A stretch of 64,000 nt of DNA from contig JADJIV010000004.1 in NCBI GenBank assembly GCA_016706845.1, positions 47,727 to 111,726 of the forward strand, read 5' to 3'. Below are positions 2,468-63,923 of this stretch, in pieces. The notes under the pieces were generated by a model. It saw only the letters and a program-made list of their open reading frames with translations, made no database searches and had not been told where the DNA came from. The position numbers and the translations under genes are program-made. Origin of the DNA: a bacterium (lineage in GTDB: Bacteria > Krumholzibacteriota > Krumholzibacteriia > LZORAL124-64-63). Each line of letters begins with the position of its first letter. Within the stretch, counting starts at the first letter, position 1.

Positions 2468-2507
2468 AGTCGCACCCGACGCAACGACCCGCATCCCGGG
2501 AGGGACC

Positions 2508-3476: not shown

Positions 3477-3524
3477 GCTGATCCCCTGCAAGCCGCGACC
3501 TCGCCGGTGATCCCCCCTCGAAAG

Positions 3525-3651
3525 CGCACATCCTGCCGTGACAGGGGTGTCCTGCAGGCCCTGGAGCCAGGATGGCGAAAGGGCCGGAAGGCCAAGCGCT
3601 CCGGGCACACGAGGTGCCCGGAGCGCGTCCCCTGTCACGGCAGGATGTGCG
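3525..3651. repeat. 23-bp perfect inverted repeat enclosing nested hairpins, between convergent genes
   Basis: cgcacatcctgccgtgacagggg (3525-3547) / cccctgtcacggcaggatgtgcg (3629-3651); inner 13-bp stem 3596-3608/3614-3626; ggcc-GGAA-ggcc at 3582-3593. Confidence 0.8.
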
Positions 3652-3666
3652 GACCCTGGTCGCATC

Positions 3667-4361
3667 TCACTCCCATAGAGGGATTTGACCTCGCCGAAGC
3701 TAAGGTTCTCGGTCGGGACCGTGCAGTCCACGACGCAGATGGCGCCGGCGATCGGCTCCAGCCTGTAGGTGCCGAAGCTGTACGCCAGCATCCCCGTCGC
3801 GCAGTCGTAGCAGTGGCCCAGCTGGACGCTCGTGTCGTCGTACCAGTAGTCGTCCATCCACAGGAACTGGCCGGGCGCCTCGTAGGACTCCACCTGCCAC
3901 TCGCCGTAGGCATTCGGCGCGTTCACCACGATCATGCCGTCGGTCACCATGATGAAGCAGCTCTCGTAGGCCTCGCCGTTGACGGCGAGCTCGGTCACGG
4001 TGACCGGCAGCGGGTAGATGGCGCCCATGTGCTCGCCCAGCACCGTGACGTAGCCGTTGGGGTCGGTGGAGACGTTGATCTCGGTGAAGTCGTAGTACTC
4101 CTCGTAGAGTCCGGCGACATCCACGAGATCGCCCACCGCGACGCCGGGGGCGGCGCTGGTGAAGACCCAGACGCCCGCGTAGGCGGCGTTCGGGTCCTCG
4201 GTCATGAAGAAGCCGTTGTAGCGGACGCCGGTGACCACGGCGCCGTCGACCACGATCTGGCTGCCGACGGTGAAGGCGCCCATCTGCAGGTCGATGATGG
4301 TTCCGGCGAACGCGGGCCCGGCGGCCAGCAGCAGCAGCACGGTAGCAAGCAGCTTCATCAC
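3667..4361 (-). CDS. Secreted OB-fold protein (YhcR/ExeM-like N-terminal domains) with short C-terminal tag; paralogue of 4572..5249
   Basis: Signal peptide MMKLLATVLLLLAAGPAFA; GVWVFTSAAPGVAVGDLVDVAGLYEEYYDFTEI; ends ENLSFGEVKSLYG. One extra G in the run at 3672-3674 gives LYGE-stop at 3667 and a length matching the paralogue, so the track's tail to 3462 is probably artefact. Confidence 0.75.
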
Positions 4362-4518
4362 GACAACCTTTCGTCGAAGTGGAGGCCTCCGTGGGCGCGC
4401 GAGGCGGCCCAGGATGTGGGGAAGCCGACCTGCCCGGATCCTAGCACGGATCGGGATGATTCTGCAAACGACCCGTCGAAATGGTGGCGATTTTCACGGA
4501 TGCGACGGATGGACGCAG

Positions 4519-4548
4519 AAAGGGACCGCCGTGACCGGCGGTCCCCTT
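4519..4548 (-). terminator. Intrinsic terminator after the 4572..5249 gene
   Basis: 10-bp stem gggaccgccg/cggcggtccc, 4-nt loop, followed by UUU on the minus strand. Confidence 0.65.
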
Positions 4549-4571
4549 CCCCAGCTCAGGAGCAGGCAGGC

Positions 4572-5249
4572 TTAGCGGTAGAGCGCCTTCAGCGAACCGA
4601 AGCTGAGGTCCTCGTTGGCGACCGTGCAGTCGGTGTCCGCGGTCGTGAAGACCTTGAAGATCCACATGTCGCCGAACCACTGGTACATGCCGTAGGCGTT
4701 GTTGTAGCAGTCGCCCAGGTCGACCGTGGCGTAGTCGTAGAAGTAGTCGTCGAAGATCACGCTCAGGCCGGTCTCGACCGAATCGGCGCGCCACATGCCC
4801 TCGGGCAGCAGCTCCTGGACGATCAGGCCGTCGGTGATGGTCACGACGTGGCTCTCCCAAGCCTCGGGATTGGCCTGCAGCTGGGTCGTGGTCAGCTGGA
4901 GGTTCGGCACCGGGCTGGAGCCGGTGGCCGTGGCGTGGGCGTCGCCGGGGTAGAGCAGGTTGATCTCGTCGCGGCCGTAGAAGCTGCGGGTCAGACCCTT
5001 GACCTCCACGACGTCGCCGACGGCGACCGCGGGCACGGCGCCGACGTAGACCCAGATGGCCGTGTAGGGTCCGGCGGGCAGCTCGGTCATCGTGAAGCTG
5101 CTGTTCTGGACAGCGGTCACCACGGCGCCTTCGACCAGGACCACGCTGCCGTCGGGGATCACGCCGGTGCGGATGTCGTTGATGACGCCGGCCTGCGCGA
5201 CGGCCGCGAGGCACAGGATCAGGAGGGATGCGATCACAAGCTGCTTCAT
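4572..5249 (-). CDS. Secreted OB-fold protein (YhcR/ExeM-like N-terminal domains) with short C-terminal tag
   Basis: AGGAG RBS before ATG 5249; signal peptide MKQLVIASLLILCLAAVAQA; AIWVYVGAVPAVAVGDVVEVKGLTRSFYGRDEI; ends NEDLSFGSLKALYR-stop. Confidence 0.85.
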   Translation of the reverse strand: MKQLVIASLLILCLAAVAQAGVINDIRTGVIPDGSVVLVEGAVVTAVQNSSFTMTELPAGPYTAIWVYVGAVPAVAVGDVVEVKGLTRSFYGRDEINLLYPGDAHATATGSSPVPNLQLTTTQLQANPEAWESHVVTITDGLIVQELLPEGMWRADSVETGLSVIFDDYFYDYATVDLGDCYNNAYGMYQWFGDMWIFKVFTTADTDCTVANEDLSFGSLKALYR

Positions 5250-14276: not shown

Positions 14277-15607
14277 CGGTCGTCCTCTCGCGATTTCAGG
14301 CTCTCGGAACCGTCGACGTCGATGCGGATCGGAGTGCGGGTCCGGTTGCGGAAGCCCATGATCTCGACCTGGACCACGTGGTCCCACTCCTGGCCCAGGT
14401 CGTCCAGGATGACGACGGTGGCCCGGTAGACGCCGTCGCCCACCAGCCGGCCGTTCTCGTCCTCGCCGCCCCAGACCACGGCCTCCGGCGGCGGGCCCTC
14501 CTCGAAGATGCGGCGGACCAGCTCGCCCTGGTCGTTGCGGATCTCGACGCGCCACTCGGCCACCTCGCCGCGCAGCGCCGTGTCGACGCCGAAGGAGACG
14601 CTGCGGTCGTTGCCCGACGGGCTGAAGCGCAGGCGGTCGCTGTGGATCTCGACGCCGTCGGTGATGCCGAAGCGCATCGTGGCGCTGACCACCGTCGTGG
14701 AGCCGAGGTCGTGCGCGACGTGGGCGTAGTCGAGCTGCCAGTTCTGCCAGCGCACGCCGGCCCCGAAGCTGGTCTGGTCGCGCACCGTGTCGTAGCCGCC
14801 GCGCAGCACCAGCTGCCGCAACGGCCAGGCCTCGATGCCGCCCTGGAAGTCCAGGTCCATGAGGTCGGTGCGGACCAGGTCCGTCAGCACGAGCATGCGG
14901 TTGTTGAAGAAGTGCAGGCCGGCGCCGGCGCGCAGGGTCCTGGCCAGCTTCTCCGGCGTTTCCAGCAGCGTGATCTCCGGCTGCAGGGCGTTCTGGTAGG
15001 AGACGCCCAGGCTGAGCCGCCGCTCGGGGCGCAGGTAGAGGCCCACGTCGGCGCCGTAGCCCGAGCCGGTGAAGCCGCCCACGTCCTGGGAGATCGACTT
15101 CAGGGTGGCGCCCCAGCCGAAGCGGCTGCTGCCGCGGGCGTAGGTCAGCGCGAAGATCCCCTCCTTCTCTTGGAAGGTGTCGTTCATGTCGACCCACTCG
15201 GTCGCGCGCTCGAACTCGCCGCTGTTGGTGAAGGTGCCGCTGAAGGCGAAGGTGCCGCGGCCCTCGCTCGGCAGGCCGAACGCCACGTACGAGTAGCGGG
15301 TGTCGCCGAAGAGGGTGGCCCCCATCGCCGTCACCTCCATGGTGCGCAGCTGCGAGAGGGCGGCCGGGTTCCAGTACACGGTGGCGACGTCGCCGCCGAG
15401 CGCGCCGACGGCTCCGCCGAGGGCGAGGCTGCGGGCGCTGCTGCCGAAGCGCAGGAACGCGCCGGGCGCACCGCCGTCCTGGCCGGCGAGGACCGGTCCG
15501 GCAGCCAGCAGGGCCGCCAGGAGCAGGAGCGCGGGGTATCGTCTTTCCGCCGCGCCGAAGGCGCGTCGGGGGTGCTGGCGCTGGTTGTTGTCCGCGTCGC
15601 GCTTCAT
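14273..15607 (-). CDS. PorV/UPF0164-like outer-membrane beta-barrel fused to a C-terminal FlgD-like domain
   Basis: AGGAGAGG RBS; GAFLRFGSSARSLALGGA..DVATVYWNPAAL; amphipathic beta-strands ending LDYAHVAHDLGSTTVVSATMRFG; then FSPSGNDR..WRVEIRNDQGELVRRI..VVWGGEDENGRLVGDGVY. Confidence 0.8.
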   Translation of the reverse strand: MKRDADNNQRQHPRRAFGAAERRYPALLLLAALLAAGPVLAGQDGGAPGAFLRFGSSARSLALGGAVGALGGDVATVYWNPAALSQLRTMEVTAMGATLFGDTRYSYVAFGLPSEGRGTFAFSGTFTNSGEFERATEWVDMNDTFQEKEGIFALTYARGSSRFGWGATLKSISQDVGGFTGSGYGADVGLYLRPERRLSLGVSYQNALQPEITLLETPEKLARTLRAGAGLHFFNNRMLVLTDLVRTDLMDLDFQGGIEAWPLRQLVLRGGYDTVRDQTSFGAGVRWQNWQLDYAHVAHDLGSTTVVSATMRFGITDGVEIHSDRLRFSPSGNDRSVSFGVDTALRGEVAEWRVEIRNDQGELVRRIFEEGPPPEAVVWGGEDENGRLVGDGVYRATVVILDDLGQEWDHVVQVEIMGFRNRTRTPIRIDVDGSESLKSREDDR

Positions 15608-15615: not shown

Positions 15616-18600
15616 CTACTTCACCACCGCGATCTTGCGGCGGAAATCGAAGCCCTGGCCGGTCACCCGGCAGATGTAGCCGCCGTTGGCCACCACGTCG
15701 CCCTGGCCGTTGCGGCCGTCCCAGGCGAACTCGGTGGTCTGGTCGGCGGCGGCGTTCAGTTGGCGATTCAGCACGATCGTCCCGTAGAGGTCGTAGATCG
15801 TGATGTTCACCGTGCCGGCGGCCGTCGGTTTGAACAGGATCCGCGTCAGCTCGCGCACGGGGTTGAACGGGTTGGGCCGGTTGGTGATCTCCCGCCCCTC
15901 GTCCAGCGCCTGCGTGGTGTAGAGCACGATCTGCCGCAGCGCCTCCTTCACGCCCGTGTTCTCTTCGGCAAAGAACCGCAGGACATGAACGCCGGATTCG
16001 CCGGGGGCCAGCTCCTCGAGGCTGAAGGCCTCCTGGTAGGCGGTCAGGGGCTGCGCGCCGTCGGACTGGTCGACGTCGAAGCGGATCGTGGTGGTGGCCT
16101 CCGGGATGCCCGGGACCGCCGCCAGGGTGATCTGCGTGTCGGCGCTGACGTACCAGCCGTCGAGGTACTCGCTGGCGACGCCGGTGAAGGACGGGGTGGT
16201 GACCGGCGGCCCGGCCACGGCCAGCAGGACCTCCTCGGGGTCGAGGGCGTCCACGCCGGCCCGCAGCAGGACGTCGGTGGTGCCGAAGGCGGCGACGCGC
16301 AGGGTCGTCTCGGCGGTGCCGTCGCTGCCGGTCAGCAGGTGGACGGCGCCGGCGCGGGCCGAGCCGAGCGTGGCCTCGCCGGCGCGGACCTCGAAGGCGA
16401 CGGCGGCGCGGGGCGCCGGGTTGCCGCCCTCGTCGCGGGCCGCGACGCGGACGCGGATCTGCTGGTCGGGCCGCAGGACGCGGTCGAAGGGCGAGCCGTC
16501 CGACTCGAGCAGGGTCAGGGTGAAGGTCCGCGCCGGGGCCGCCAGCACGGTGATCAGGCGGCTGAGCACGTCGCCGCCGGCGGCGTCGGTCACGCGCAGG
16601 TAGATCGACTCGGCGCGGTCGTAGGCCTGGTCGTCGAGCAGCGCGCGGCCCTCGACGGTGGCGCCGTAGGTGTAGCGCAGCACGCCGGTCGGGACGAGCG
16701 CCGGGTCCGGGCGCACCGCGCCCGACCAGGCGTTGATCGCCGAGATGCTGAAGGTCTCGTCGTAACCGGTGACCAGCCGGCCCGTGGTCACGTCGACGCG
16801 CGTGACCGACAGCGGCCACGGCTCCCCGGCGACGACCGTGTCCGGGGCCGTCACCGCGTAGGTCACGCCCACCGGGATGACCGTCACCACGGGGCTGTCG
16901 GTCGAGCGGCCGCGCTCGTCGGAGACGCGGATGATGATGCGCTCGCTGACGCCGTAGCTCTGGGTCGCGATGTCGGCCGCGCCCTGCAGGAGCGTCCATT
17001 CCGTCACGCCCAGCTGCCCGTCGGGGGCGCCGAAGTCGTAGCGCAGCGCCTCCAGGGCGATGCGGTTGCCGGCCGGCACCGTGGCGCCGGTGGCGGGGTT
17101 GACCAGGCGCACGCCCACGCCGAAGCGCGAGGGCGGCCCCACGAAGGTCGTGTCCGGGACGCTGACCTGGTAGACGGCCTCCGCCACCGGGATGGTCACG
17201 TGGCCCTGGCCGGCCTCGGGGTGCTGGTTGTCGTCGGCGCTGAGGACCAGGTTGCCGGCGCCGTCGAGCACGACCCCGACCTGCCGGCGGCCGCCGATGA
17301 AGGGGGCGTGGTAGTCCGCGGGGTTCTGCCACGCGAACAGGTCGGGCTCCGAGCAGTCGAGCTCCAGGGCGCCGCCGTCCAGCGACGTGATCGGGTTGAA
17401 GAACTGGTCGACCGCGCGCAGCTCCACGACGAAGGGTTCGCCCGCCGTCTGGACGACCGGCGCGCCGGTCTTGCCGGTGCCGACCTCGGCGCCGGGCTCC
17501 GGCGTCTCGCCGGGCGCGACGATCTGCAGCTGCTTGAAGCCGTCGGCCGCGAGGCGGCAGCTGTTGGAGAAGCCCTCGTTGCCGTCGCCGTCGACGATGC
17601 GGAAGTAGACCTCCTCGGCCAGCGTGTAGGTCTGCTGGACGTCGGTGTGGCCGCCGGTCAGCATCTGCTGGACGGTGCCCAGCACGCCGCCGCCGGCCTC
17701 GCCGGTGGCGGCGCTCAGCACCGAGATCTGGATCAGGCCGCTGTGGGCCGCGACGCGCTCGCCGGTGTTGCTGTCGATCAGGTCGACCGCCAGCGGGAAG
17801 GTGGCCGGGCCGCCCACGATCGCTGCCGCGGGGGCCGCGACGTCGTAGTAGAGCCCGCCCGTCTGCATCGTCACGACGCTGCTCGTGGTCTGCCGCCCGA
17901 AGTCGTCGGACACGCGGATCCGCAGGTCCTCCAGGGCGCTGTAGCTCTGATCGCTGATGAACGAGACGCCGTTGATCAGGTAGACCTCCGTGGTGCCGAG
18001 CACGCCGTTGCCGGGCGCGAAATTCGCCCGCAGCGGCGTCAGGTCGACCCGGTGGCCGGCGCCGGCGACGGGTTCGCCGGTGTCGGGATCGACGAGCCGC
18101 ACCGTCATCGCGAAGCCCGGCATGCCGCCGGTCTGGGCCGCGGCGGGCACGGTGATCTGGTAGACGTAGGGCCGGCGCACCGGCACCGCGACGGTCTGTC
18201 CCGGCAGCTGCGGCGCGTCGAGGTCGCCCACGGTGACGCCCACCGCGCCCTCGGCCACCAGGAAGGCGTCGACGGCGCGGCTGCCGAGGAAGAACGGCGC
18301 GTCCTGCGGGTCGGGGTTGTCCGGCCAGGAGAACGAGCCGTCGGTGGCCGAGAGGTGGACCCGGCCGCCCGACGCGTCGCCGATCGGGTTCCAGTACTGG
18401 TCCACGGCCCGCACCACCATCGGGAACGGTTCGCCCGAACGCTGGGTGTCCGGCAGGGCCGACTTGCCCGTGGCGGCGAAGGCGGCCTCGCCCGGCCGCG
18501 CCGTCTCGCCCGGGGTCAGCAGCTGCAGCCGCTGATAGCCGGCGGGCCGGACGGTGAACAGGGGGCTGTCGCCGGCCAGGCCGCTGGGATCGAAGGCGCG

Positions 18601-21600
18601 CACCGCGAACTCGCCGGCCTGCGTGTAGGTCTGCTGGAAGCTGACCTGGCCGTCGACGAGGCGGCGCGAGGTCACGCCCACGGCGCCGGCGCCGAGCGTC
18701 CCGCCGCCGTCGACGACCGCGACGCTGAAGAAGCGGTCGTCGTCCACGAGCGATCCCGTCTCGGTGTCGCGCAGCCTCACCGTCACCGGGAAGGCCGCCG
18801 GCGGCCCCGCCACGGGCGCGGGCGTCGTGCCGACGACGACGTCGTACCACAGGCCGTTGGGATCCATGCGGATGATGTCGCTGTAGCCGAGGCGGCCGGA
18901 GGAGTCGCTCACCTCGATGACGATGCGGCTGGCGACGTCGTAGGCCTGGGCGGGGATCGCCACGACGCCGGCGGTCAGCTGGGCCTGCGTCGCCAGCAGC
19001 ACGCCCGGGGCGGGCTGCAGCGTCGGCGTCAGGGCGCGCAGGGTGACCTGGTTGTAGGCGTTGGTCATGACGGTCCCGGCCTCGTCCACCAGTTCCACGC
19101 TCATGGCGAAGGAGCTGGGCGGCCCGACGAACGCCGTGTCGGGGGTCGTGATCCGGTACTGGGCCCCGGCGGCGACCTGCACGACCACGTCGTGGCCCAG
19201 GATCTCCGCGTCGGTCAGGTCGTAGGCCGTGAGCGTGGCGTAGCCGAGGCTCGACAGCGCCACGGGGAACACGATCTCGCCGGCGGCGAGCGCCTGGCCG
19301 TTGTTCAGGGGATTGCCCGGCACGACGGAGCCCTCGTCGCTGCCGAGGTGGATGTTGTGCACGCTGTTGTCGACGCGGTTCCAGAAGCGGTCGACGGCGT
19401 CGACGGTCAGCGGGAACTGCAGCGTCGCGGTCTGCACCGCGGGCGTGCCGGTCTTGCCGTCGACCTCGGGGCCGCCGGGGTTCGGCGTCTCGCCGGGCGC
19501 GACGGCCAGCAGGCGGTAGAATTCGCCGGGATTCACGCGCACGGCGCTGGAGTCGCGGCGGGCGGACACCGCCAGGTCCCGCGCGCGCAGCGTCTGGGTC
19601 GTCGCCGTGCGGAAGGACAGGGCGAAGGCCGTGGAGCCGTCGGGCTCCAGCGGCACGTCGTTGGCCGTGACCAGGTCGGCGTAGCTGCTGGTCGACACCC
19701 TGACGATCGGGCTGGCGGGCACCGGGTTCCACCACGCGTCCAGGGCGGTCACCGCGGCGGTCACGTCCGCGCCGGCGACCACCGGCAGCGGCTCGCCGAA
19801 CTTGCCGGGCGCCTCGCCCGGCGTGGCCGTCTCGCCCGGCAGCAGGACCTGCAGGCCCGCGTACGCGCCGGGGAAGACGGTGAAGGGGTTGCTCTCGCCG
19901 GTGCGCCCGTAGACGTCGTCCACGGCCGACACGGTGATGCCCTGGCCGGCGCGCGTGATGCGCATGCTGCCGCGCCACACGCCCTGGTAGATGCCGGTGC
20001 CGTAGCCGTCGGCGAGGCTGACGCGCAGCGGCGCCAGCACGTCGCCGCCCACGTTCAGGCGCAGCGAGACGCTGTCGGTGAAGGTGCGGATGTGGTTGCC
20101 GTAGGCGTCGCGCGCGATCACGGTGAGGTTCGGCAGCCAGGCGCCGGCCTGGTGGTCGGGCACCGGCTCGAGGATGTCGGTCGGGTCGGGGTTGACGCCG
20201 TCGTTGACGCCGATCTCGAAGTGGTCGATCACGCCGGCCTCGACCGGGATGAGCGCCGACGCGGTGCGCGTGCTCACCGGGTCGGTGGCGGTGACCAGCT
20301 GCTGGTTCGGATCCGCCAGAGTCTCGAGCGTGACCGGGAAGACGCCGGTCCCGGACTGCAAGCTCTGGGGCGCCGCGGGCAGGGTCGCCTGGGGATCGGT
20401 GCTGGTGAACACCAGCGGGATCGGCAGGGACGGGCTCGTCGCCTCGATGGGGTTGTAGTAGTAGTCCGTGGCGATGACCTGGATGTTGAAGGGCGCGCCC
20501 GCGTCCTGGGGGGACGGGGTGCCGACCTTGCCGGGCGCGTAGATCGTGCCGGCGTCCAGGGTTTCGCCGGGCGCGATCACCATCAGCCGCTGGTAGACGT
20601 TCGGCGAGACGCGCAGGGGGCTCGAGAAGCTGTCCGCCTGGCCGCCGACGCTGGCCTGCAGCAGCTGGTCGCCGTGCGTCGCCATCAGGGCGCTGTAGAC
20701 GCCGGTGCCGTTCAGGGTGATGACCCCGCTCTCGATCAGGGTGCCGCCGCCGTCGAGCAGCAGCAGGTGGCCCGTCGGGCAGGTGATCGCGACGGTGCGC
20801 GAGCCGGACACGAGGTTGCCGTAGCGGTCCACGGCCCTGATCTCCAGGGATTCGATCATCTGCCCGGCGATGATCGGCGTGGGCAGGCCGATGTTGCCGC
20901 CGAAGGCCGGGTCGTTCAGGCCCGGGGTCCAGGTCTGGCCCGGCAGCGTGAACAGGACCTTCTCCATGGGGCCCGCGTTCACCTGGAAGTCGCCCGACAG
21001 CGTCACCACGCCGGTGTTGCTGTCGACGATCAGCCGGGCGCTGAACGCACGCTTGGTCACCTGCACCGAGGCGTTGAGCACGCCGTTGACGAAGTTGTTG
21101 CTGGTGGTGATCAGGTAGTCCGCGCTCTCGTCGACGGCGCCGATGCGGACCCGCATCGAGACGGGCCCGTTGTACGGGAACACGTTGTTGAACGAGTCGT
21201 AGGCGCGCACCCGGATCTGGAACGGGGTCGTGGTCGCCTGCACGGCGTTGGTGTCGAGCACGGCGTAGTCGAAGGAGAAGTGGTGGAGCCCGGCCGGGTT
21301 GACCTGGACGTTGGCCGAGCTCGAGGTCGAGATCGGGCCCGAGGCGGTGACCGTCACCTGGCGCAGGCCCGAGGTCATCAGCGTGGCCGACTGGTCCTGG
21401 ACCGTGTTGCTGCTCATGGCCCCGCCGGCGGGCAGCGCCACGCCGGGGGCCGCGTCGTTGGCGCTCCAGGCCAGCGTCGGGAAGGGGCCCGACGCCACGG
21501 GGTTCCAGTACTGGTCGGTCGCGTAGACGTCGATGCCGGTGAACGGGAAGCCCGAGATCTGGGCGATGGCCGTGCCGCTGCGGCCCGGGCTGACGCCCGG

Positions 21601-22407
21601 CGTCAGGGTCTGGCCCGGCAGCAGCAGGACGACGCGGTTCAGGGCCCCGGGATAGAGCGGCGCCACGAGGCCGCTGCCGGCCGCGGCCGCGGCCTGCGTC
21701 GGGTAGACGACAGTGTTCAGGGCGTTGACCGTGTTCTGCTGCAGCGCCGGGTCGGTGCCCTGGAAGACGACGTTGGCCGCGGCGACGCCGGCGACGAACG
21801 AGCCGCCGCCGATGGTGAGCGACGGGCCGGAGGTGAAGTGCCCGATCGCCGGCGACAGCACCACGTCGTCGTCGAAGTTGCGGACGGCCACGTTCATGAG
21901 GTCGCGGGCGGTGACCGTCAGCGCGACGTTCTGGCCGACGTACTTGTCGCCGGCCGGTACGCCGATCTCGAAGTGGTGGACGAAGTTGTAGCAGTTGATT
22001 TCAACCTGGGCGAACGGCACCGAACCGTCGTCCTGGTCCGCGACGCGCAACCGCACCGGCTGCCCGTCGTCCAGGAAATCGATCCCGGTGAAGATGCGCT
22101 CGCCGTTCTGCAGGTAAGCCGAAGCCGGCAGGGTCGCAGCCACGTCCGGCGAGGACAGCGCGGCGCGGATGAAGTCCGCCGCAGTGTCGGTCGTGCCGTC
22201 GGTGTTCACCGCCCGCACGAGCACGCTGAACTGCTCGTAGATGGTGACCGCGGGCCGACCGTCGACGATCTCGGGGTTGATCACCGTGATCTCGAGGTGG
22301 TCGAAGGCCAGGGCGGCCGCCGGCGCCAGGGCCAGCAGGCCCACAGCCAGGACGGTGGCGAACTTGGCGATGGCGATCCTGTTGCGCGTGCGCTCGTTCA
22401 TGGTCAT
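15616..22407 (-). CDS. Giant secreted multi-repeat (Ig-like) surface protein with T9SS/FlgD-like CTD, about 2260 aa
   Basis: Signal peptide ending ..ALAPAAALA; 7 copies of PG[EQ]TxxPG..GK.G.P..AVD.[YW]WN; 6 copies of Y.[VI]..P....G.P..F...V.L.D...G; CTD ITNRPNPFNP..TIYDLYG..FAWDGRNGQGDVVANGGYICRV..RRKIAVVK. Confidence 0.88.
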   Translation of the reverse strand: MTMNERTRNRIAIAKFATVLAVGLLALAPAAALAFDHLEITVINPEIVDGRPAVTIYEQFSVLVRAVNTDGTTDTAADFIRAALSSPDVAATLPASAYLQNGERIFTGIDFLDDGQPVRLRVADQDDGSVPFAQVEINCYNFVHHFEIGVPAGDKYVGQNVALTVTARDLMNVAVRNFDDDVVLSPAIGHFTSGPSLTIGGGSFVAGVAAANVVFQGTDPALQQNTVNALNTVVYPTQAAAAAGSGLVAPLYPGALNRVVLLLPGQTLTPGVSPGRSGTAIAQISGFPFTGIDVYATDQYWNPVASGPFPTLAWSANDAAPGVALPAGGAMSSNTVQDQSATLMTSGLRQVTVTASGPISTSSSANVQVNPAGLHHFSFDYAVLDTNAVQATTTPFQIRVRAYDSFNNVFPYNGPVSMRVRIGAVDESADYLITTSNNFVNGVLNASVQVTKRAFSARLIVDSNTGVVTLSGDFQVNAGPMEKVLFTLPGQTWTPGLNDPAFGGNIGLPTPIIAGQMIESLEIRAVDRYGNLVSGSRTVAITCPTGHLLLLDGGGTLIESGVITLNGTGVYSALMATHGDQLLQASVGGQADSFSSPLRVSPNVYQRLMVIAPGETLDAGTIYAPGKVGTPSPQDAGAPFNIQVIATDYYYNPIEATSPSLPIPLVFTSTDPQATLPAAPQSLQSGTGVFPVTLETLADPNQQLVTATDPVSTRTASALIPVEAGVIDHFEIGVNDGVNPDPTDILEPVPDHQAGAWLPNLTVIARDAYGNHIRTFTDSVSLRLNVGGDVLAPLRVSLADGYGTGIYQGVWRGSMRITRAGQGITVSAVDDVYGRTGESNPFTVFPGAYAGLQVLLPGETATPGEAPGKFGEPLPVVAGADVTAAVTALDAWWNPVPASPIVRVSTSSYADLVTANDVPLEPDGSTAFALSFRTATTQTLRARDLAVSARRDSSAVRVNPGEFYRLLAVAPGETPNPGGPEVDGKTGTPAVQTATLQFPLTVDAVDRFWNRVDNSVHNIHLGSDEGSVVPGNPLNNGQALAAGEIVFPVALSSLGYATLTAYDLTDAEILGHDVVVQVAAGAQYRITTPDTAFVGPPSSFAMSVELVDEAGTVMTNAYNQVTLRALTPTLQPAPGVLLATQAQLTAGVVAIPAQAYDVASRIVIEVSDSSGRLGYSDIIRMDPNGLWYDVVVGTTPAPVAGPPAAFPVTVRLRDTETGSLVDDDRFFSVAVVDGGGTLGAGAVGVTSRRLVDGQVSFQQTYTQAGEFAVRAFDPSGLAGDSPLFTVRPAGYQRLQLLTPGETARPGEAAFAATGKSALPDTQRSGEPFPMVVRAVDQYWNPIGDASGGRVHLSATDGSFSWPDNPDPQDAPFFLGSRAVDAFLVAEGAVGVTVGDLDAPQLPGQTVAVPVRRPYVYQITVPAAAQTGGMPGFAMTVRLVDPDTGEPVAGAGHRVDLTPLRANFAPGNGVLGTTEVYLINGVSFISDQSYSALEDLRIRVSDDFGRQTTSSVVTMQTGGLYYDVAAPAAAIVGGPATFPLAVDLIDSNTGERVAAHSGLIQISVLSAATGEAGGGVLGTVQQMLTGGHTDVQQTYTLAEEVYFRIVDGDGNEGFSNSCRLAADGFKQLQIVAPGETPEPGAEVGTGKTGAPVVQTAGEPFVVELRAVDQFFNPITSLDGGALELDCSEPDLFAWQNPADYHAPFIGGRRQVGVVLDGAGNLVLSADDNQHPEAGQGHVTIPVAEAVYQVSVPDTTFVGPPSRFGVGVRLVNPATGATVPAGNRIALEALRYDFGAPDGQLGVTEWTLLQGAADIATQSYGVSERIIIRVSDERGRSTDSPVVTVIPVGVTYAVTAPDTVVAGEPWPLSVTRVDVTTGRLVTGYDETFSISAINAWSGAVRPDPALVPTGVLRYTYGATVEGRALLDDQAYDRAESIYLRVTDAAGGDVLSRLITVLAAPARTFTLTLLESDGSPFDRVLRPDQQIRVRVAARDEGGNPAPRAAVAFEVRAGEATLGSARAGAVHLLTGSDGTAETTLRVAAFGTTDVLLRAGVDALDPEEVLLAVAGPPVTTPSFTGVASEYLDGWYVSADTQITLAAVPGIPEATTTIRFDVDQSDGAQPLTAYQEAFSLEELAPGESGVHVLRFFAEENTGVKEALRQIVLYTTQALDEGREITNRPNPFNPVRELTRILFKPTAAGTVNITIYDLYGTIVLNRQLNAAADQTTEFAWDGRNGQGDVVANGGYICRVTGQGFDFRRKIAVVK

Positions 22408-22512
22408 CCCGCCGTGGAAGGGATCCTGGAACGTCCGGGGCGCGGACGGCCGTGCAGAATGCAAAGCCGGACAGGGAGATCCGGCGTTGCGGCACGGGCC
22501 AGCGGGTCCAGG

Positions 22513-24279: not shown

Positions 24280-26199
24280 CTACTTCACCAGCATGAGCTT
24301 GCGGACCTGCAGCACGTCGCCGCCGATGCGCAGACGGGCGAAGTAGGTGCCGCTGGCCACCTGCTGGCCCGCGTTGTTGGTGCCGTCCCAGGTCACGACG
24401 CGCTCGCCGCTGCCCTGGAGCCGCTCGTTGACGAGCGTGGAGACCAGCTCGCCGCGGATGTTGTAGACGTTCAGCTGGACCAGGTTGTCCCGCGTCAGGA
24501 CGAAGCGGATCTCCGTCTTGGGGTTGAACGGGTTCGGCTTGATGCTCGAGAACCCGCCCGCGGGCAGGATCTGGGGCAGGTCGCCCTCGACGGCCGTCGC
24601 GCCGACGGTGATGTCCTCGTCGCGCAGCGGGACCAGCTGGAACTCGCCGAAGGCGTAGTCCATGAAGCCCTTCACGGTGACCACGTCGCCGATGACCGGC
24701 GCGTACACCATGTTGAAGGCGGCGTTGACGACCAGCGAGTCGGCCCGCGCGCCGGTGTCGGAGACCAGGAACTCGCTGTACAGGGCCGAGCCCAGGGTGT
24801 CGACCACGGTCGAGGAGAACGTGCTCACCAGGACGCTCTCGTAGGCCTCGCCCAGGTAGCCGCCGGGCGACGTGTCGTCGGCCAGGACGGCGGTGTGCGC
24901 CTGGTTGTAGGCGGGCAGCGCGTTCTCGAAGGAGATGTACTCGATCGCCGTGCCGTTGTGCGGGTTCATCTCGGTCAGGCCGAAGTACTCCTCGATGTAG
25001 CCGCCGACCTGGACCTCGTCGCCGGGCAGCAGGAAGTTGGCGGCGGTGCCCTCGTAGCAGAGCAGGCCGCTGAAGGTGCCCGAGCCGTCCTGCATGATGA
25101 ACTTGCTGGTCGAGCCGGCGTCGCCGGTGCCGGCCGTCACGATGCCCTGCACGTTGACAACGCGGCCCGTGAACGGCGAGTTCTGCGGGGTGGTCGCGGG
25201 GTCGACGTACTGCACGTCGTGGATGGACGTGATGCCCACCGCGACCTCGTACCAGCCGGCCGGGGCGTCGCCCGGGTTCAGCGAGATGTTGCCGTTGCCG
25301 TCCAGGGCGCGGACGTAGAAGTCGACCTGACGGCCCAGGAAGCCGCCGGGGATGGTCGCCGACCACGTGCTGCCGCTGGTGTTGGTCATCGGGGTGCTCA
25401 GGAAGACGCCGGTGCTGTCGCCGGAGTCGTCGCGGTAGTAGAGGGCCGCGGAGGTCACGGCGACGTCGTCGGTGATCGTCGCGGTGACGGTGATCGGGTC
25501 GCTGGCCAGCGGGGTCCAGTCGGCGCAGTTGACGGCGTCGACGATCGGGCCCGAGCCCTCGATGAGGTCGCTCTGGCGGCGGGGCTTCAGCTCCATGATG
25601 CCGCCCGTGAAGTTGACCAGCGGGGCGATGATCCGGTAGCTGTCGCCGATCGCGACGCCGCCCGTGTTGATCCCCGTGTCGGTGTCGACGTAGACGATGA
25701 TGGTGTCGGTGCCGGAGTGCATCTTGAACTGGTTGGAGGCCACCGCCGTCGAGATCGTGCCGGAGATCGAGACGAACTTGCCGACGTTTTCGTAGTCGGA
25801 CTTCGCCTGGGCGATGGTCATCGTGACGGGCGTCGGAGCGGCCTCGGCGCCGAGGAAGGTGACCGTGGGCGCCGGGGAGAGCTGGATCTCGCCCTGGAAG
25901 ATGCCGACGGTGCCGGTGACCGAGACCCGGTCGCCGTAGGTCAGCGGGGGAGCCGCCGAGTTGAAGAAGGCGATGCCGTTGCCGGAATCGTCGATGATGT
26001 AGTGGGAGCCGGCGTTGTAGGTGCCCTTCAGAACGTAGACCCGGCCCTCGACCGTCTGGGTCGTGCCGTTGTAGGGGCTGGCCGGGGCGCCGGTCGTCGG
26101 ATTGTAGTACTGGATGTCGTCGATCGTCTGGGCGGCGGCCAAGCCGGCCACGCACACGACGACGGCGAGCGCCACGGCGCTCTGAATCGATCGCTTCAT
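24280..26199 (-). CDS. Secreted multi-OB-fold protein with FlgD/T9SS-like CTD
   Basis: ATG 26199 with AGGAG RBS; signal peptide; TIDDIQY..SPYNG and SIHDVQY..SPFTGRVVNVQGIVTA modules; CTD KPNPFNPKTEIRF..VYNIRGELV..WDGTNNAGQQVASGTYFARL..VRKLMLVK. Confidence 0.88.
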   Translation of the reverse strand: MKRSIQSAVALAVVVCVAGLAAAQTIDDIQYYNPTTGAPASPYNGTTQTVEGRVYVLKGTYNAGSHYIIDDSGNGIAFFNSAAPPLTYGDRVSVTGTVGIFQGEIQLSPAPTVTFLGAEAAPTPVTMTIAQAKSDYENVGKFVSISGTISTAVASNQFKMHSGTDTIIVYVDTDTGINTGGVAIGDSYRIIAPLVNFTGGIMELKPRRQSDLIEGSGPIVDAVNCADWTPLASDPITVTATITDDVAVTSAALYYRDDSGDSTGVFLSTPMTNTSGSTWSATIPGGFLGRQVDFYVRALDGNGNISLNPGDAPAGWYEVAVGITSIHDVQYVDPATTPQNSPFTGRVVNVQGIVTAGTGDAGSTSKFIMQDGSGTFSGLLCYEGTAANFLLPGDEVQVGGYIEEYFGLTEMNPHNGTAIEYISFENALPAYNQAHTAVLADDTSPGGYLGEAYESVLVSTFSSTVVDTLGSALYSEFLVSDTGARADSLVVNAAFNMVYAPVIGDVVTVKGFMDYAFGEFQLVPLRDEDITVGATAVEGDLPQILPAGGFSSIKPNPFNPKTEIRFVLTRDNLVQLNVYNIRGELVSTLVNERLQGSGERVVTWDGTNNAGQQVASGTYFARLRIGGDVLQVRKLMLVK

Positions 26200-26330
26200 A
26201 CTGTCTGTCTCCTCTGCTTCGGACACACGTTTCCCGCGCAGGGCACGAGTTGGGAGTCGGATCCAGGCGTCAAGTTCAGGATTATGAAGCGTGGAAAGTG
26301 GATCGCGGCCCATGACTCAGTGCACGCAAG

Positions 26331-28645: not shown

Positions 28646-28678
28646 GCCGGCCCCCTCGACGGAGCCGGCGTTTGTTTG
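28646..28678 (+). terminator. Possible riboswitch attenuator hairpin
   Basis: gccggc..gccggc stem followed by gtttgttt, between aptamer and RBS. Confidence 0.4.
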
Positions 28679-33066: not shown

Positions 33067-33891
33067 AACAGCTTGTAGGTCACGCCGAACCCGAAGATCT
33101 CCCGCCACCGCCCGCGGTCGGAGATCTCGCGGTCGTAGAGCCACTCCAGGAACAGCGTGGTCTGGATGTACTTGGAGACCTGCGCCGAGAACTTCGTCTC
33201 CAGGGCGGCGTCGGTGCCCTGCCAGTCGTCGCCGTACGTCTCGTCGAGGTTGCTGGTGACGGCCTGGAAGACGCGCAGCTTCGAGACAACGTTCAGCTGG
33301 GGGTTGAAGGTGTGCGTCAGGTCCGAGACCCACTCCAGACCGGCGTCCTGGACCGTCGCGACCCGGTAGGCCGTGCGCTGGCGCACGCCGAGGCCGACGC
33401 GGGTCGTCAGGTCGGTCGTCTCGTTCTTGACGAGCTGGCGGCCGAGTCCCGCGGACTCGGTCAGCAGGGCCGGCGTCAGCGGGTGCTTGTCGGCGTCGTG
33501 GAACTGGGTCTCGGCCGCGAACGCCACGTACGGCGTGATCGGGCGCTCGACGCCGAAGCGCATCAGCGATTCGAGGAAGATGCGGTCGGTCGACTTCAGG
33601 GGCGAAGCCCAGGTCTTGCCCGCGGCGGTCTCCCGCTCCTGGTGGGTCTGGCCGTAGGTGAGCTTCAGCGTGTTCTTCCAGTTCGTGGAGGTGCTGAGGT
33701 CCTTCTGCGCCGCGACGTCGCCGCTGAAGGTCCAGACCACCGTGCCCAGTTCGCTGCCGGCCCAGGATCCGCTGTACCCGCTCTGGCTGAACATCAGCCC
33801 CAGGTCCGCCGACTTCTGCCACTCCCCGGCCGACGCGCCGGAACAGACATGCGACCAGCGCCGCCACCATCAGGGCATGTCTCGACTTCAC
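33063..33891 (-). CDS. DUF3078/DUF481-like outer-membrane beta-barrel; one extra base near 33839
   Basis: Signal peptide from GTG 33891, then EWQKSADLGLMFSQSGYSGSWAG, WKNTLKLTYGQ, KSTDRI; ends FGFGVTYKLF. Confidence 0.7.
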
Positions 33892-34092
33892 ACCGAACCT
33901 CCAGATTGCAGTTCACGAAACGACCGTCTGCCGGCGCCGATTCTAACGACGACCGCCGCACTCCGCAACCACGCTCCCGCGCCACCGGCCCCCGCGATGC
34001 AATTTCCGGCCGCGCGCGCCGGGATGTGTACTATAATTTCGCGGGAGATCCATCGCTTCAGCGAGCAGAATCGTCGGAACGGGGGGTTATTC

Positions 34093-36480
34093 ATGCATCC
34101 ATTCGCAAGGATCGGCGTCGCGGTTCTGATGCTCACGATCGCCGTCGGGCCTGCCATCGCACAGGAGTTCACGCCTGACGAGCACACGCTCCTGCTTCTG
34201 CACGGCAACGGGAACCTGCTGGGCGCGGCGGGCGAGAACCCGACCACGGCCTCGGGCATCGGCTACACGGACGGCGTGTTCGGTCAGGCCATCGATCTGC
34301 CGAACGGATCGCAACTGCGCTACGCCGCGGCGAACAACCTGGTCATGGCGGCGGGAACCGTCGAGTTCTGGCTGAAGCCGCACTGGAACGGCAACGACGG
34401 CGGGACGTACCTGATGCTGACCTGGGGGACGTGGGGCGGCCTGCTGCTGGCGAAGGACGGCGCCGACAACCTGCGGATCATGATCAACCGGTGGAGCGAC
34501 CACGGCCTGCCCGAACGCGGCGCGAGCTGCAACGTGGCCGGCGAATGGGCGGCCGAACAGTGGCACCACTGCGCGTTCACCTGGGACAGCGAATTCGTTC
34601 GCGTCTACATCGACGGCGTGAAGCGAGGCGAAGAGGGCGTGGGCTTCACGCCGCCGGCGATCGCGGCCACGCAGTTCCAGATCGGCGGCGAGGGCGTCGA
34701 CGGCACGCTCCAGGGCGCGATCGACGAATGGCGCATCAGCGACGTCGTGCGCAGCGCGGCGGAAATCGAAGCGTCGTTCCTGGCGGGCGTGGCGGTCACC
34801 GACCTGGCGGCGGCGCCGCGCACCACCAAACCGTGGGTGACCTGGCCCGTCCACGTGACGCTGACGGCCACGACGCAGGTCGGCGAGATCGAGATCCCGC
34901 AGGGCGCCGCCGTCTGGTCGACCAGCGACGCGGATGTCGTGAGCGTGCAGCCGGACGGCGAACTGCGCGCCGTGGGCGAAGGAACGGCCACGCTGACGGC
35001 GACGTACCGGGGCCAGTCGGCGACGTGCGACCTGCAGGTGCGGGCGCCGGTCCTGGCGCCGACGCACGAAGCGCTGCCGAACGACCTGTCGACGCCCGCG
35101 GACGACGCCATCTGGGAGGTGCCGGTGCTGGTCATCAGGTACTTCGCCACGGCCGACGGGGTCAACCTGGACACGTCCATCTCGCCGGACTTCTGGTGGC
35201 TGAACCCGCTGACCCTGGCCCAGCTGGATGCCGACGTGCTGGCGATGAACCGCCGCACGAAGTTCGCCCTGGAGCAGGGCAGCCGCTTCCGCGCGTACAA
35301 CGACCCGCAGGCGCGGCCGTCGCTGGGTTACCGGGTGGTGGACCAGATCACCGTGTACGAACAGACGCCGCCCGGCAAGATCGTCGGCTACGACCAGGGC
35401 GACCCGTTGTGGGAAGCGGACTGGTTCGCGATCTTCGACCGCCTCGACGTGCGCCACTACGTGGAGGACCTGGGCGTCAAGGAGATCTGGGTCTGGACGG
35501 GCGGCCTGGGGCGTTGGCCCAGCTTCGATGCGGGCCTGCACGACGTGGCCGATTTCCGCGGCGGCTGGGAATCGAACATGTCGAGCCCGCTGACGGGCGA
35601 CATCTCCAACAGCAACCGCGACCCGTCCGACCTGCCGGTCTACGACAGGACCTACGTCGTCTACGGCTACAACTTCCGCCGCAGCCAGGCCGAGGCGATC
35701 CACGACCACGGGCACCAGCTGGAATCGCAGTTCGCCTGGGTGAACGAGCAGCAGGACGGCAACACCGACCTCTTCTGGAAGCAGTGGCGCGGCCAGGACC
35801 AGGACGGCAACAAGGTGACCGGCCGCTGCGGCGACACGCACAGCCCGCCCAACACGCTGGCCGATTACGACTACGAGAACCAGGCGGTGGTCCTCAGCGA
35901 CATCGCCGACTGGACCGTCGACGGCTCGGGCGCCTTCACGCCGGTGAACGCCGACACCTGGGGATCGCTGGTGTGGCCGTGGCCCGACGGCGTCATGGAC
36001 TTCAGCCAGCGCATCGAGACGCAGTGGTACATGTACTGGATGATGAGCATGCCGGGCTTCGACAACGGCCTGGCGTACGGCGACGAGGCGCTCGGCAACT
36101 GGTGGGAGTTCATCGGCAACTGGGACCAGGCGGTCGCGGCGGGGCACGGGCTGCACGGTCCCGACAGCCTGACCGGAGCGCCGCAGACGAGCGATGAGGC
36201 GGTGTTGCCGTCGATCCGCTTCCTGCTGGCCAATCCGTCGCCGGGGACCTCGTCGTTCGAGGTGACGTCCAGCGGGCGCGGCCGGCTCGAGGTGGGCGTG
36301 TACGACGTGCGCGGCCACCTGGTGCGGCTGCTCCACCGCGGCCCCGGCAGCGCGGCGCCGATGTCGTTCACCTGGGACGCACGGGACGAGGCGGGCCGCG
36401 CCGTGGCGGCCGGCGCCTACCTGCTCCGCGTGCGCGAGGGAGCGCGGCTGGCGACGCACAAGCTGGTGATCGTCAGATAG
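34093..36480 (+). CDS. Secreted LamG-like + Ig-like (Big_2) + putative metal-binding domain protein with FlgD-like CTD
   Basis: Signal peptide; LamG (GTVEFWLKP, QWHHCAFTWD, GAIDEWRISD); Big_2 (VWSTSDADVVSV..AVGEGTATLTATY); EAIHDHGHQLE; CTD ANPSPG..VYDVRGHLVRLL..WDARDEAGRAVAAGAYLLRV..HKLVIVR. Confidence 0.85.
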   Translation: MHPFARIGVAVLMLTIAVGPAIAQEFTPDEHTLLLLHGNGNLLGAAGENPTTASGIGYTDGVFGQAIDLPNGSQLRYAAANNLVMAAGTVEFWLKPHWNGNDGGTYLMLTWGTWGGLLLAKDGADNLRIMINRWSDHGLPERGASCNVAGEWAAEQWHHCAFTWDSEFVRVYIDGVKRGEEGVGFTPPAIAATQFQIGGEGVDGTLQGAIDEWRISDVVRSAAEIEASFLAGVAVTDLAAAPRTTKPWVTWPVHVTLTATTQVGEIEIPQGAAVWSTSDADVVSVQPDGELRAVGEGTATLTATYRGQSATCDLQVRAPVLAPTHEALPNDLSTPADDAIWEVPVLVIRYFATADGVNLDTSISPDFWWLNPLTLAQLDADVLAMNRRTKFALEQGSRFRAYNDPQARPSLGYRVVDQITVYEQTPPGKIVGYDQGDPLWEADWFAIFDRLDVRHYVEDLGVKEIWVWTGGLGRWPSFDAGLHDVADFRGGWESNMSSPLTGDISNSNRDPSDLPVYDRTYVVYGYNFRRSQAEAIHDHGHQLESQFAWVNEQQDGNTDLFWKQWRGQDQDGNKVTGRCGDTHSPPNTLADYDYENQAVVLSDIADWTVDGSGAFTPVNADTWGSLVWPWPDGVMDFSQRIETQWYMYWMMSMPGFDNGLAYGDEALGNWWEFIGNWDQAVAAGHGLHGPDSLTGAPQTSDEAVLPSIRFLLANPSPGTSSFEVTSSGRGRLEVGVYDVRGHLVRLLHRGPGSAAPMSFTWDARDEAGRAVAAGAYLLRVREGARLATHKLVIVR

Positions 36481-37859: not shown

Positions 37860-38414
37860 CTATCGGTAGAGTACCTTCACGCCGCCCCAGGTGGCGTTCT
37901 CATTGCCGACGTAGGTGCCGGCCTCGATGGCGGCGGTGTCGAGCCGCGCCTCGGGCCAGGCCAAGATCTCCATGTCGTCGTCCTGGCTGGCGACCAGGGC
38001 CAGACCGACCTGGACGGGCCCGTCCAGCAGGAACGCCCAGTTCGCCACGGCGTTGCCGCCGATGGTCAAAAACGGCGTGCTGAGGTCGAAGGCGCCGGTC
38101 AGCGGCATCGCCACGGCCCACAGGAACCCACCTTGGGGGTCGGGCACGAACGCGACGAGTTCCGCAACCCAATCCACGAGATTGCCGTCGCCGTCGCGGC
38201 GCTGACCGTTGAAGGCCACGCCGGTCCAGTGGATCGACAGGTCGTCGATCGAGCCGACCTCGGGCGCGAGGGTGAAGGTGGTGGAGCGGGCGCTTTCCCC
38301 GAACCGCGCCACGTACTGGCCGTCGACCCCCGTCAGGGGGATGACCAGGGGGTCGGCCAGCGCGGGGACGGCGGCGATCAGGCAGAGCAGCAGCAGCAGG
38401 CGCAAGGTTGTCAT
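37860..38414 (-). CDS. Secreted hypothetical protein with short C-terminal tag
   Basis: GGGAG RBS; signal peptide MTTLRLLLLLCLIAAVPALA; ends VGNENATWGGVKVLYR-stop. Confidence 0.8.
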   Translation of the reverse strand: MTTLRLLLLLCLIAAVPALADPLVIPLTGVDGQYVARFGESARSTTFTLAPEVGSIDDLSIHWTGVAFNGQRRDGDGNLVDWVAELVAFVPDPQGGFLWAVAMPLTGAFDLSTPFLTIGGNAVANWAFLLDGPVQVGLALVASQDDDMEILAWPEARLDTAAIEAGTYVGNENATWGGVKVLYR

Positions 38415-63491: not shown

Positions 63492-63923
63492 GTGACCACG
63501 AGCCCGAAGCGCAATACGTTGCCGCACAAGCTGTTGATCCTGATCTGCCTGTTGCTGGCGTCCACCGTCGCGTGGGCGGCGGACGCGGACCTCGACGGCG
63601 TCGACGATGCCGTCGACAACTGCCCCGGCGTCTACAACCCGACCCAGGCAGATGACGACATGGACCAGATCGGCGACCTGTGCGACCCGGACGCCGACCC
63701 GGATGCCGATGGCCTGCCCAACTACATGGACAACTGCCCGAACCTGTCCAACCCCAGCCAGGCCGATGACGACGCCGACGGCGCCGGCAACACCTGCGAC
63801 AACTGCCCGAACATTCCGAACGTGGACCAGGCCGACCTCGACCACAACGGCGTCGGCGACGCGTGCGAGACCGTGTCCGGAGACGACTCGGGCTGGGGCA
63901 TGCTCAAGAGCTGGTACCGGTAG
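63492..63923 (+). CDS. Secreted thrombospondin type-3 repeat protein with short C-terminal tag
   Basis: Signal peptide ..LLILICLLLASTVAWA; three DNCP..N..QADxD.D..GxxC repeats; ends VSGDDSGWGMLKSWYR-stop. Confidence 0.85.
   Translation: MTTSPKRNTLPHKLLILICLLLASTVAWAADADLDGVDDAVDNCPGVYNPTQADDDMDQIGDLCDPDADPDADGLPNYMDNCPNLSNPSQADDDADGAGNTCDNCPNIPNVDQADLDHNGVGDACETVSGDDSGWGMLKSWYR

Follow-up and report, generated by a model that had tools for sequence, protein, structure and literature searches.

A short C-terminal tail shared by unrelated secreted proteins of an uncultured bacterial phylum: a candidate sorting signal

C-terminal sorting signals decide how bacteria dress their surface. To our knowledge, the classes described so far are all either tripartite signals that include a membrane helix or folded domains for secretion. 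In the latest survey of small C-terminal sorting domains (10.1101/2023.06.07.544157), only tripartite signals appear, i.e. a motif, a transmembrane helix and an Arg cluster. On the side of the folded domains, the loaded type IX secretion system (T9SS) translocon binds the C-terminal domain (CTD) as a folded domain, with ~1,850 Å2 buried (Lauber et al. 2024, PMC10994853). We describe here a tail, with a conserved stretch of 16–20 residues, that ends four signal-peptide proteins encoded on a stretch of 64,000 nucleotides from a bacterium of the Krumholzibacteriota (assembly GCA_016706845.1, contig JADJIV010000004.1, positions 47,727 to 111,726; the whole stretch is called the window hereafter).

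In general kind this tail would be a C-terminal sorting signal: its anatomy fits the criteria that define small C-terminal sorting domains in the survey cited above. It fits neither described architecture, however, and has no catalogued model: no Pfam or NCBIfam (June 2026) model matched the tails at E <= 1, and a full-text literature search on sorting signals in these lineages returned no description of it, in line with the first, sequence-only reading of the window, which had proposed the tail as uncharacterised. It is terminal, it is carried by heterologous signal-peptide proteins, it is swapped with the CTD on paralogues, it occurs throughout the phylum together with the T9SS proteins SprA and PorU, and it lies in a conserved operon with a PorU-like peptidase (PorU-L). 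We are confident that it is a real C-terminal signal, acting after Sec and strongly selected. From its anatomy and context we infer, with less assurance, a sorting function, an involvement of the T9SS, PorU-L as reader and a cleavage of the tail.

The tail and the proteins that carry it

The source genome is a 3.37-Mb assembly of 71% G+C, in which the window corresponds to C4:47727-111726. In the window proteins the tail follows the consensus V-[AP]-N-E-x3-W-G-x-[VI]-K-x-[LM]-[YF]-[RK]-stop. A hidden Markov model (HMM) built on 22-residue C-termini was run against the open reading frames (ORFs) of this genome and matched 69 of them, in 67 cases 0–4 residues from the stop; the two exceptions are the window protein P1 described below and one other read-through or frameshift case, and no internal match above 10 bits was found among these ORFs. 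A loose regular expression applied to the six-frame translation gave 36 matches, 34 of which fall within 2 residues of a stop, and a stop-anchored DNA pattern gave 23 matches versus 0 for its reversed control. Synonymous codons vary among the DNA-pattern matches listed, which indicates selection on the peptide, not a DNA repeat.

The logo of the tail is V60-[A44/P30]-N58-E67-x-x-S53-W90-G83-x-V65-K100-x-L51-Y79-R86-COOH. Near-invariant in canonical tails are W (90%), G (83%), K (100%), the aromatic Y/F/W (100%) and the final R/K (100%); Arg closes 86% of them and Lys 13%, and the invariant Lys stands at −4. Over the whole set, R or K is terminal in 43/69, and the Tyr is followed by 0–4 residues: after this Tyr we found R (37 cases), nothing (8), K (6), GR (3) and a few other short ends. 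With at least three near-invariant residues near the C terminus in 69 copies, the tail has what characterizes the signature motif of tripartite signals. No hydrophobic or transmembrane segment follows this motif in the tail, and a single terminal R or K stands where tripartite signals have an Arg cluster; the distinction that had been drawn from sortase and PEP-CTERM signals is therefore justified.

Once trimmed of their tails, the bodies form 43 clusters unrelated by BLAST. A canonical Sec signal peptide is present in at least 54 of the 69 tagged ORFs according to a start-searching heuristic, and a lipobox in two; under a stricter export rule, 66% of the tag genes are retained versus 22% of the other genes (odds ratio 6.8, p = 7e-12). 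Tagged proteins are small, with a median of 218 aa versus 580 aa for CTD-bearing ORFs. Altogether, these data agree with the sequence-only reading on the four similar tails, all found again where it had placed them, on their strictly terminal position, on the enrichment in signal peptides and on the unrelated bodies. The tail was found neither at random positions nor as a mark of cytoplasmic proteins, and neither limited to a single family nor matching the end of a known domain, which are the observations that this reading had named as speaking against it.

Among 37 representative tagged proteins, seven have Pfam matches: PPC (two), TSP_3, DUF642, LTD, cohesin and CBM_4_9, all of them non-catalytic modules typical of surface or secreted proteins. 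Structures predicted with AlphaFold2 (AF2) for two unrelated families show the tail as a coil followed by a helix of 8–11 residues, detached from the body. In the window protein P2, residues 207–216 (CTVANEDLS) are predicted as coil and residues 217–224 (FGSLKALY) as helix, with a predicted local distance difference test score (pLDDT) of ~70; in the cohesin-like family, the body reaches 90–97 and the tail helix, at residues 163–173, a pLDDT of 51–57. According to these models, the tail would be a flexible appendage outside either body fold. One face of the helix carries its W, V, L and Y, with K and R at the flanks. A tagged protein of 121 aa, outside the window (C19:69866-70231), has a single CxxCH motif.

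Of the four window proteins, P2 (4572..5249, minus strand) is the best documented. This protein of 225 aa has a signal peptide, a tandem OB-fold body and the C-terminal tag, and it ends CTVANEDLSFGSLKALYR-stop; the tag itself, VANEDLSFGSLKALYR, is encoded at 4575..4622 (minus strand), with the stop at 4572-4574. Its 72 homologues keep the tail down to 31% identity, K221 being invariant. The body is modelled with a pLDDT >90 and resembles in Foldseek the HIN-200/POT1-like tandem OB folds, which are DNA-binding OB pairs; in NCBIfam it also matches, weakly, the N-terminal region of secreted nucleases of the ExeM/NucH type.

P1 (3462..4358, minus strand) is a tandem paralogue of P2, with 40% identity, whose frame continues 69 residues beyond the tag. 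Read codon by codon, this tag is found at 3672..3719 (minus strand) as VPTENLSFGEVKSLYG (CTVPTENLSFGEVKSLYG in the protein) and scores 30.2 bits with the HMM. The DNA runs ...ctc tat ggg agt gag atg..., the tag therefore ending ...SLYG, with a stop at 3667-3669 in another frame; one added base gives ...LY-x-E-stop at 3667. As 37/37 aligned homologues end ...LY-R-stop and as one base restores a stop, a single nucleotide was apparently lost in the region of the terminal Arg codon: the loss of the stop is an apparent 1-nt deletion or an assembly error. The read-through part (3462-3719) overlaps the end of a convergent epimerase gene (2442-3476).

P3 (37860..38414, minus strand; 184 aa with a signal peptide) ends YVGNENATWGGVKVLYR-stop, its tag being VGNENATWGGVKVLYR at 37863..37910 (minus strand). 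No Pfam model matched its body, and only six homologues were found, all at least 89% identical. P4 (63519..63923, plus strand) counts 134 aa from its signal-peptide start and ends ETVSGDDSGWGMLKSWYR-stop, with the tag VSGDDSGWGMLKSWYR at 63873..63920 (plus strand); its body consists of thrombospondin type 3 repeats (Pfam TSP_3, E = 1.6e-21).

Distribution and relation to the type IX C-terminal domain

We searched 208 species genomes of the phylum for a DNA pattern that encodes W-G-x-[VIM]-K-x-Φ-[YF]-x and closes with a stop codon, with the reversed pattern as control. The pattern matches in 197/208 genomes, from 0 to 48 times per genome, and the reversed control in none. By profile search, which gave 8–134 tails in every genome of the phylum tested, the lineages with few strict matches (families f3 and f4, genera g16 and g28) hold 8–62 tails; many of the matches listed for them end at the Tyr, without terminal Arg. 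The tail is found in low-G+C members as well. It is universal in the phylum, marking 2–4% of the predicted proteins of this entire uncultured group, i.e. thousands of proteins in public data. As it is present in every lineage, there is no tag-less lineage on which phylogenetic profiling could rely within the phylum. SprA was detected in 202/208 genomes, including 125/125 of the high-quality ones, and PorU in 21/21 genomes tested; since both are universal, co-occurrence is uninformative about a dependence on the T9SS.

A stricter pattern was applied to one genome per prokaryote species and matched at least 120 stretches. Among the matches listed, 46/47 genomes hold 16–96 tails, and SprA was found in 45 of these 46; G240, tag-rich and with no SprA match, is an unassessed metagenome-assembled genome. 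The record titles among these matches name Eisenbacteria, Krumholzibacteriia, Latescibacterota, Fibrobacteraceae, Gemmatimonadota and UBP1. Such labels cannot be relied on: several of the "other" genomes belong to the same GTDB phylum, with identical SprA coordinates. Two records titled "Candidatus Latescibacterota bacterium" and "Fibrobacter sp." (L052 and L055) hold near-identical copies of tagged proteins of the source genome. The submitter taxonomy being inconsistent, we did not use it to claim the tag in several phyla, and the spread claimed here is that of one uncultured phylum of Fibrobacteres–Chlorobi–Bacteroidetes (FCB) type. A search of a collection of 5.8 billion proteins with the tail only returned nothing other than orthologues of the query, the method needing several shared words.

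The sequence-only reading had proposed the tail as a second C-terminal signal beside the long FlgD-like CTD, and the source genome supports this. It encodes SprA, PorU and at least five PorV-family barrels, and ~126 of its proteins end in a FlgD-like T9SS CTD of ~85 residues. In such a genome, the tail sits where a CTD is expected, at the C terminus of Sec-exported cargo. No ORF of this genome has both tail and CTD. Sixteen tagged proteins have CTD-bearing paralogues; in the closest pairs, the identity is 56–64% from the signal peptide onward, and after the homology stops there follows either a tag of 14–18 residues or a CTD of ~85 residues. Judged on these alignments, tag and CTD are modules that alternate in one slot. 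Around the 69 tag genes, CTD proteins are the sole recurrent class, with 37 of 318 neighbours; no gene for an L,D-transpeptidase (LDT) or a Ctp was found among these neighbours.

The two signals also end in a similar way: R-K-[MLV]-x-L-[VLAI]-[RK] for the CTD and [VIL]-K-x-[LMAI]-[YFW]-[RK] for the tag. The Lys of the tag is at −4 in 100% of cases and the K/R of the CTD at −5 in 81%, so the two merely resemble each other, one residue out of register. For the CTD, the only conserved residue touching the translocon is a near-invariant and functionally important Lys near the C terminus (Lauber et al. 2024, PMC10994853). The same authors place the main role of this type A CTD Lys "elsewhere in the transport process".

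Three CTD proteins are encoded in the window: one of 2282 aa at 15616..22464 (minus strand; ends ...RRKIAVVK), one of 677 aa at 24280..26313 (minus strand; ends ...RKLMLVK) and one at 33658..36480 (plus strand; ends ...THKLVIVR), whose true start is probably downstream of 33658; the CTD is FlgD-like in all three. Directly downstream of the 2282-aa protein lies a gene for a PorV-family outer-membrane barrel (14660..15457, minus strand), matching NF033709 with 119 bits, above the cut-off. A PorV-like barrel had been suggested as the reader of the tag. This suggestion finds no support: none of the PorV-family genes of the source genome, at least five, is adjoined by a tag gene, and each sits beside a large CTD protein. 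Nor was any tag gene found beside SprA. The segment 7279-22464 of the window (minus strand) shares its gene order with C2:39840-45936, i.e. large CTD protein, PorV-family barrel, ExbB, ExbD and TonB-like protein, with a TPR protein after the barrel in the window copy only. The pairing of a PorV-family gene with one large CTD cargo is reminiscent of SprB/SprF-type cargo-shuttle pairs. At 28676-30991 (plus strand), the window further encodes a signal-peptide protein of 771 aa whose end, ...GVRYDF, closes with an aromatic residue, as is typical of outer-membrane barrels.

A PorU-like peptidase beside tagged genes

With the PorU model, true PorU proteins score ~325–560 bits, and 290 for the copy of the source genome, which is cut by a contig end (C14:58-2253). 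A second PorU-like ORF of 1360–1550 aa, PorU-L, was found in every genome searched: 45/45, with 24 further genomes included, in all nine families. It combines an N-terminal region resembling that of PorU with a complete Peptidase_C25 domain and a FlgD_ig CTD, and it keeps the only two invariant His and Cys columns, those of the catalytic His and Cys. PorU-L remains below the cut-offs of the existing models, with 133–197 versus 420 bits for PorU (NF033707) and 59–91 versus 450 bits for the "putative T9SS sortase PorU2" (NF052324). Its identity to the PorU encoded alongside it in a genome is 21–23%, and its clan is separate from those of PorU and other C25 paralogues. In the source genome PorU-L is at C15:36880-41213, with two tag genes directly upstream and one 3 kb downstream. 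The first ~290 residues of this frame are rich in Arg, Ala and Pro and look like a wrong frame, so an N-terminal frameshift may exist in the assembly; the PorU-L orthologue L150, of the same genus, is intact.

We scanned PorU-L loci over +/-10 kb for tail-bearing ORFs, in a first set of 11 loci and a second set of 20, plus those of the source genome and of genome G145. Directly upstream of PorU-L and on the same strand, 1–5 tagged ORFs of ~190–230 aa occur in 10/11 and 15/20 loci; with the two additional genomes, 27/33 loci in 8/9 families have such upstream tag genes. The chance expectation is ~0.25 tails per 20 kb, and no tag gene was found at five true PorU loci or at three loci of other C25 proteins.

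The genes upstream of PorU-L form one superfamily with an N-terminal I-G-x-Y-F-D motif. In this superfamily, 75/80 detected members end in the tail, the lowest-scoring matches covering little besides the tail itself. AF2 models it as a beta-sandwich; in Foldseek, cohesin modules make up nearly all of its 50 best matches (E from 2.5e-4, TM-score 0.45–0.54). Upstream of the cohesin-like genes is encoded a small secreted protein ending in two dockerin-like segments of the form D-x-N-x-D...V-N-L-S-D...F, and downstream of PorU-L lies a SpoIID-like gene. A dockerin-like protein, 2–5 cohesin-like tagged proteins, PorU-L and a SpoIID-like protein thus form a unit conserved in 8/9 families (C15:29110-43611 in the source genome; loci L141-L152 and L161-L180). 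This operon suggests a surface assembly of cohesin-dockerin type in a diderm lineage of FCB type, and it supplies a testable candidate enzyme for the tail. About 2 kb downstream of the tag gene of the operon nearest to it, a lipoprotein of 485 aa with eight CxxCH haem-binding motifs, i.e. a multihaem cytochrome, is encoded at C15:29110-30567 (minus strand).

Readings of the tail and known signals

Our preferred reading, about as likely as not, links the tail to the T9SS surface pathway as a portable, linear post-Sec sorting or anchoring signal. The tag would then be an alternative to the folded CTD, marking a further set of smaller clients served by the same surface-protein economy, mostly non-catalytic binding modules. 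After Sec export and folding, the flexible tail would be displayed beyond a coil of ~10 residues; a T9SS-allied component of the outer membrane or surface might bind its W/V/L/Y face, the invariant Lys and the terminal basic residue; PorU-L might act on the tail as PorU does on the CTD, cutting in or near V-[AP]-N-E, after which the protein would be released or linked to a surface acceptor. That PorU-L is the processing enzyme of the tail is a tentative proposal. It is likewise possible, though we would not count on it, that the tail represents a third architectural class of C-terminal signal, a bare linear peptide, with PorU-L as its dedicated sortase-like enzyme that cuts at V-[AP]-N-E and attaches dozens of small binding modules to the surface of these diderms; the result might be a cellulosome-like surface assembly derived from an offshoot of the type IX pathway, with cohesin-like units pairing with the dockerin-like proteins.

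Several points weigh against the link with the T9SS and against the role given to PorU-L. A short helix of ~10 residues cannot mimic the recognition of a folded CTD described by Lauber et al. (PMC10994853). By hhalign, the profile of the tail does not match significantly that of the genome's own CTDs (E = 0.37, probability 0.16); locally the two align best at the internal W-D-G motif of the CTD, not at its terminal strand, and the likeness is confined to the last 3–5 residues, so that we rejected a homology between the two. Every lineage of the phylum has the tag, the T9SS and PorU-L, and finding them together cannot tell one hypothesis from another. All the tag genes beside PorU-L are cohesin-like, so that the association in the operon may be one of PorU-L with the cohesin-like family and not with the tag; moreover family f2 has no tag genes upstream of PorU-L. 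With its own CTD, PorU-L should act at the surface, which leaves unexplained how the tagged proteins cross the outer membrane. Finally, the tail exceeds shuffled sequences in amphipathicity by only about one standard deviation (helical hydrophobic moment 0.55 versus 0.37 +/- 0.18).

Part of these points would be accommodated if the tag were the address of a pathway independent of the T9SS, with another outer-membrane translocon or sorting enzyme, its association with CTDs reflecting just a shared surface or secreted fate. The absence of homology between tag and CTD, the need of a folded domain for CTD recognition, the lack of tag genes beside the SprA, PorV-family or true PorU genes and the tag-rich G240 without SprA match go in this direction. 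We nevertheless hold this pathway rather unlikely: SprA is found in every high-quality genome, G240 being but an unassessed assembly; the tag swaps with the CTD on paralogues and both end alike; and the sole conserved non-cargo neighbour that was found is a PorU paralogue, itself a T9SS client. It might also be that the tail is not processed at all and is an amphipathic helix that docks non-covalently on the outer membrane or its lipopolysaccharide, or in the groove of a partner, as a dockerin-like handle, export being due to something else. The detached helix predicted in two families, with K and R flanking a face made of W, V, L and Y, would suit such a docking, as would the 0–4 residues after the Tyr, which indicate that no free carboxylate is needed at a set distance, and the fact that the largest tagged family is cohesin-like and in operon with a dockerin-like protein. 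There is even a precedent, PorV binding the C-terminal helix of SkpA at the periplasmic face (PMC10994853). On the other hand W-G and the invariant K are conserved more strongly than in generic membrane helices, the hydrophobic moment is modestly above that of shuffled tails, and docking explains neither V-[AP]-N-E nor the terminal requirement, while still calling for an export route; we judge this possibility distinctly unlikely.

A signal acting in the periplasm is highly improbable. It could be a tag for retention, quality control or processing, read by a PDZ-type protease or a chaperone, or a Lpp-like link to peptidoglycan through the invariant Lys. The terminal position, the aromatic then basic end and the invariant Lys recall that Lpp ends ...Y-R-K, with its terminal Lys linked by L,D-transpeptidases, and that PDZ proteases read C-termini. 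However the terminal residue is Arg in 86% of the canonical tails, the Lys being at −4 instead, the bodies are binding modules of extracellular type, paralogues have a secretion domain in the same slot, and LDT and Ctp genes were, as said, not found near tag genes. As for an artefact, be it chance, high-G+C low complexity or a translated DNA repeat, its probability is practically nil: the 71% G+C of the genome speaks for it, and nothing else. It is refuted by the reversed-pattern control, with 0 matches in 208 genomes versus up to 48 real ones per genome, and besides, the synonymous codons vary, the position is always at the stop, and the tail is kept at 31% identity as well as in low-G+C members.

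Should the link with the T9SS hold, a minimal linear signal would be accepted by the type IX system or by a sortase branch paralogous to it; the prediction of T9SS cargo outside Bacteroidota would change, and a very small secretion or display tag would be gained. Should the tail be independent of the T9SS, it would point to a new envelope pathway.

Compared with other known signals, the tail is distinct from three that act at the C terminus. Like the outer-membrane beta-signal it is C-terminal, occurs on proteins that a diderm exports by Sec and has an aromatic residue close to its end. The beta-signal, however, ends barrels; the bodies tagged here are soluble folds (OB, cohesin-like sandwich, TSP3) and the tail is predicted as a helix, not a strand. 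The terminal R/K in place of an aromatic residue and the soluble bodies rule this signal out. The C-terminal signal of type I secretion is ruled out by the Sec signal peptides of at least 54 of the 69 tagged ORFs. The Lpp-type peptidoglycan anchor was rejected as well, as 86% of the canonical tails end in Arg and 13% in Lys, which departs from the C-terminal Lys of that anchor.

The likeness is closer to the tripartite signals (LPXTG/sortase, PEP-CTERM/exosortase, GlyGly-CTERM/rhombosortase, MYXO-CTERM/myxosortase), which are likewise short, portable and present in many copies on unrelated secreted proteins. Some tag genes adjoin a candidate processing peptidase: PorU-L stands beside tag genes at 27/33 loci, but these neighbours all belong to one cohesin-like family and both partners are universal in the phylum, so that their co-occurrence is uninformative. 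The cohesin-like putative substrates recall the scaffoldins anchored by sortases. The differences are that tripartite signals have a transmembrane segment and an Arg cluster, both missing in the tag, and that their enzyme is embedded in the membrane, whereas the candidate here is a soluble, surface-located C25 cysteine peptidase, in a diderm host.

The closest system remains the type A CTD of the T9SS (TIGR04183 / PF18962; here the FlgD_ig-like PF13860), whose carrier is PorV and whose sortase is PorU. The tag shares with it the extreme C terminus of unrelated Sec-exported proteins, dozens of copies per genome, the slot on paralogues, an L-hydrophobic-[RK] end with a Lys a few residues off and, as far as tested, the restriction to genomes with SprA and PorU. 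It differs by its size and fold, 16–20 residues of coil and short helix versus the Ig-like beta-sandwich of 70–100 residues, by the small proteins that carry it and by giving no match to the profiles of the CTD families. The partner differs too: the CTD has PorU, and the tag genes adjoin the PorU paralogue instead.

PorU-L has the same architecture as PorU, i.e. the N-terminal region, Peptidase_C25 with the catalytic His and Cys and a CTD of its own; PorU, unlike PorU-L, is not in operon with tag-bearing cohesin-like genes at the five loci examined. In Gram-positive bacteria, some anchoring scaffoldins are fixed to the cell wall by means of a sortase signal at their C terminus, and a cohesin-like tagged protein beside a sortase-like peptidase follows the same logic.

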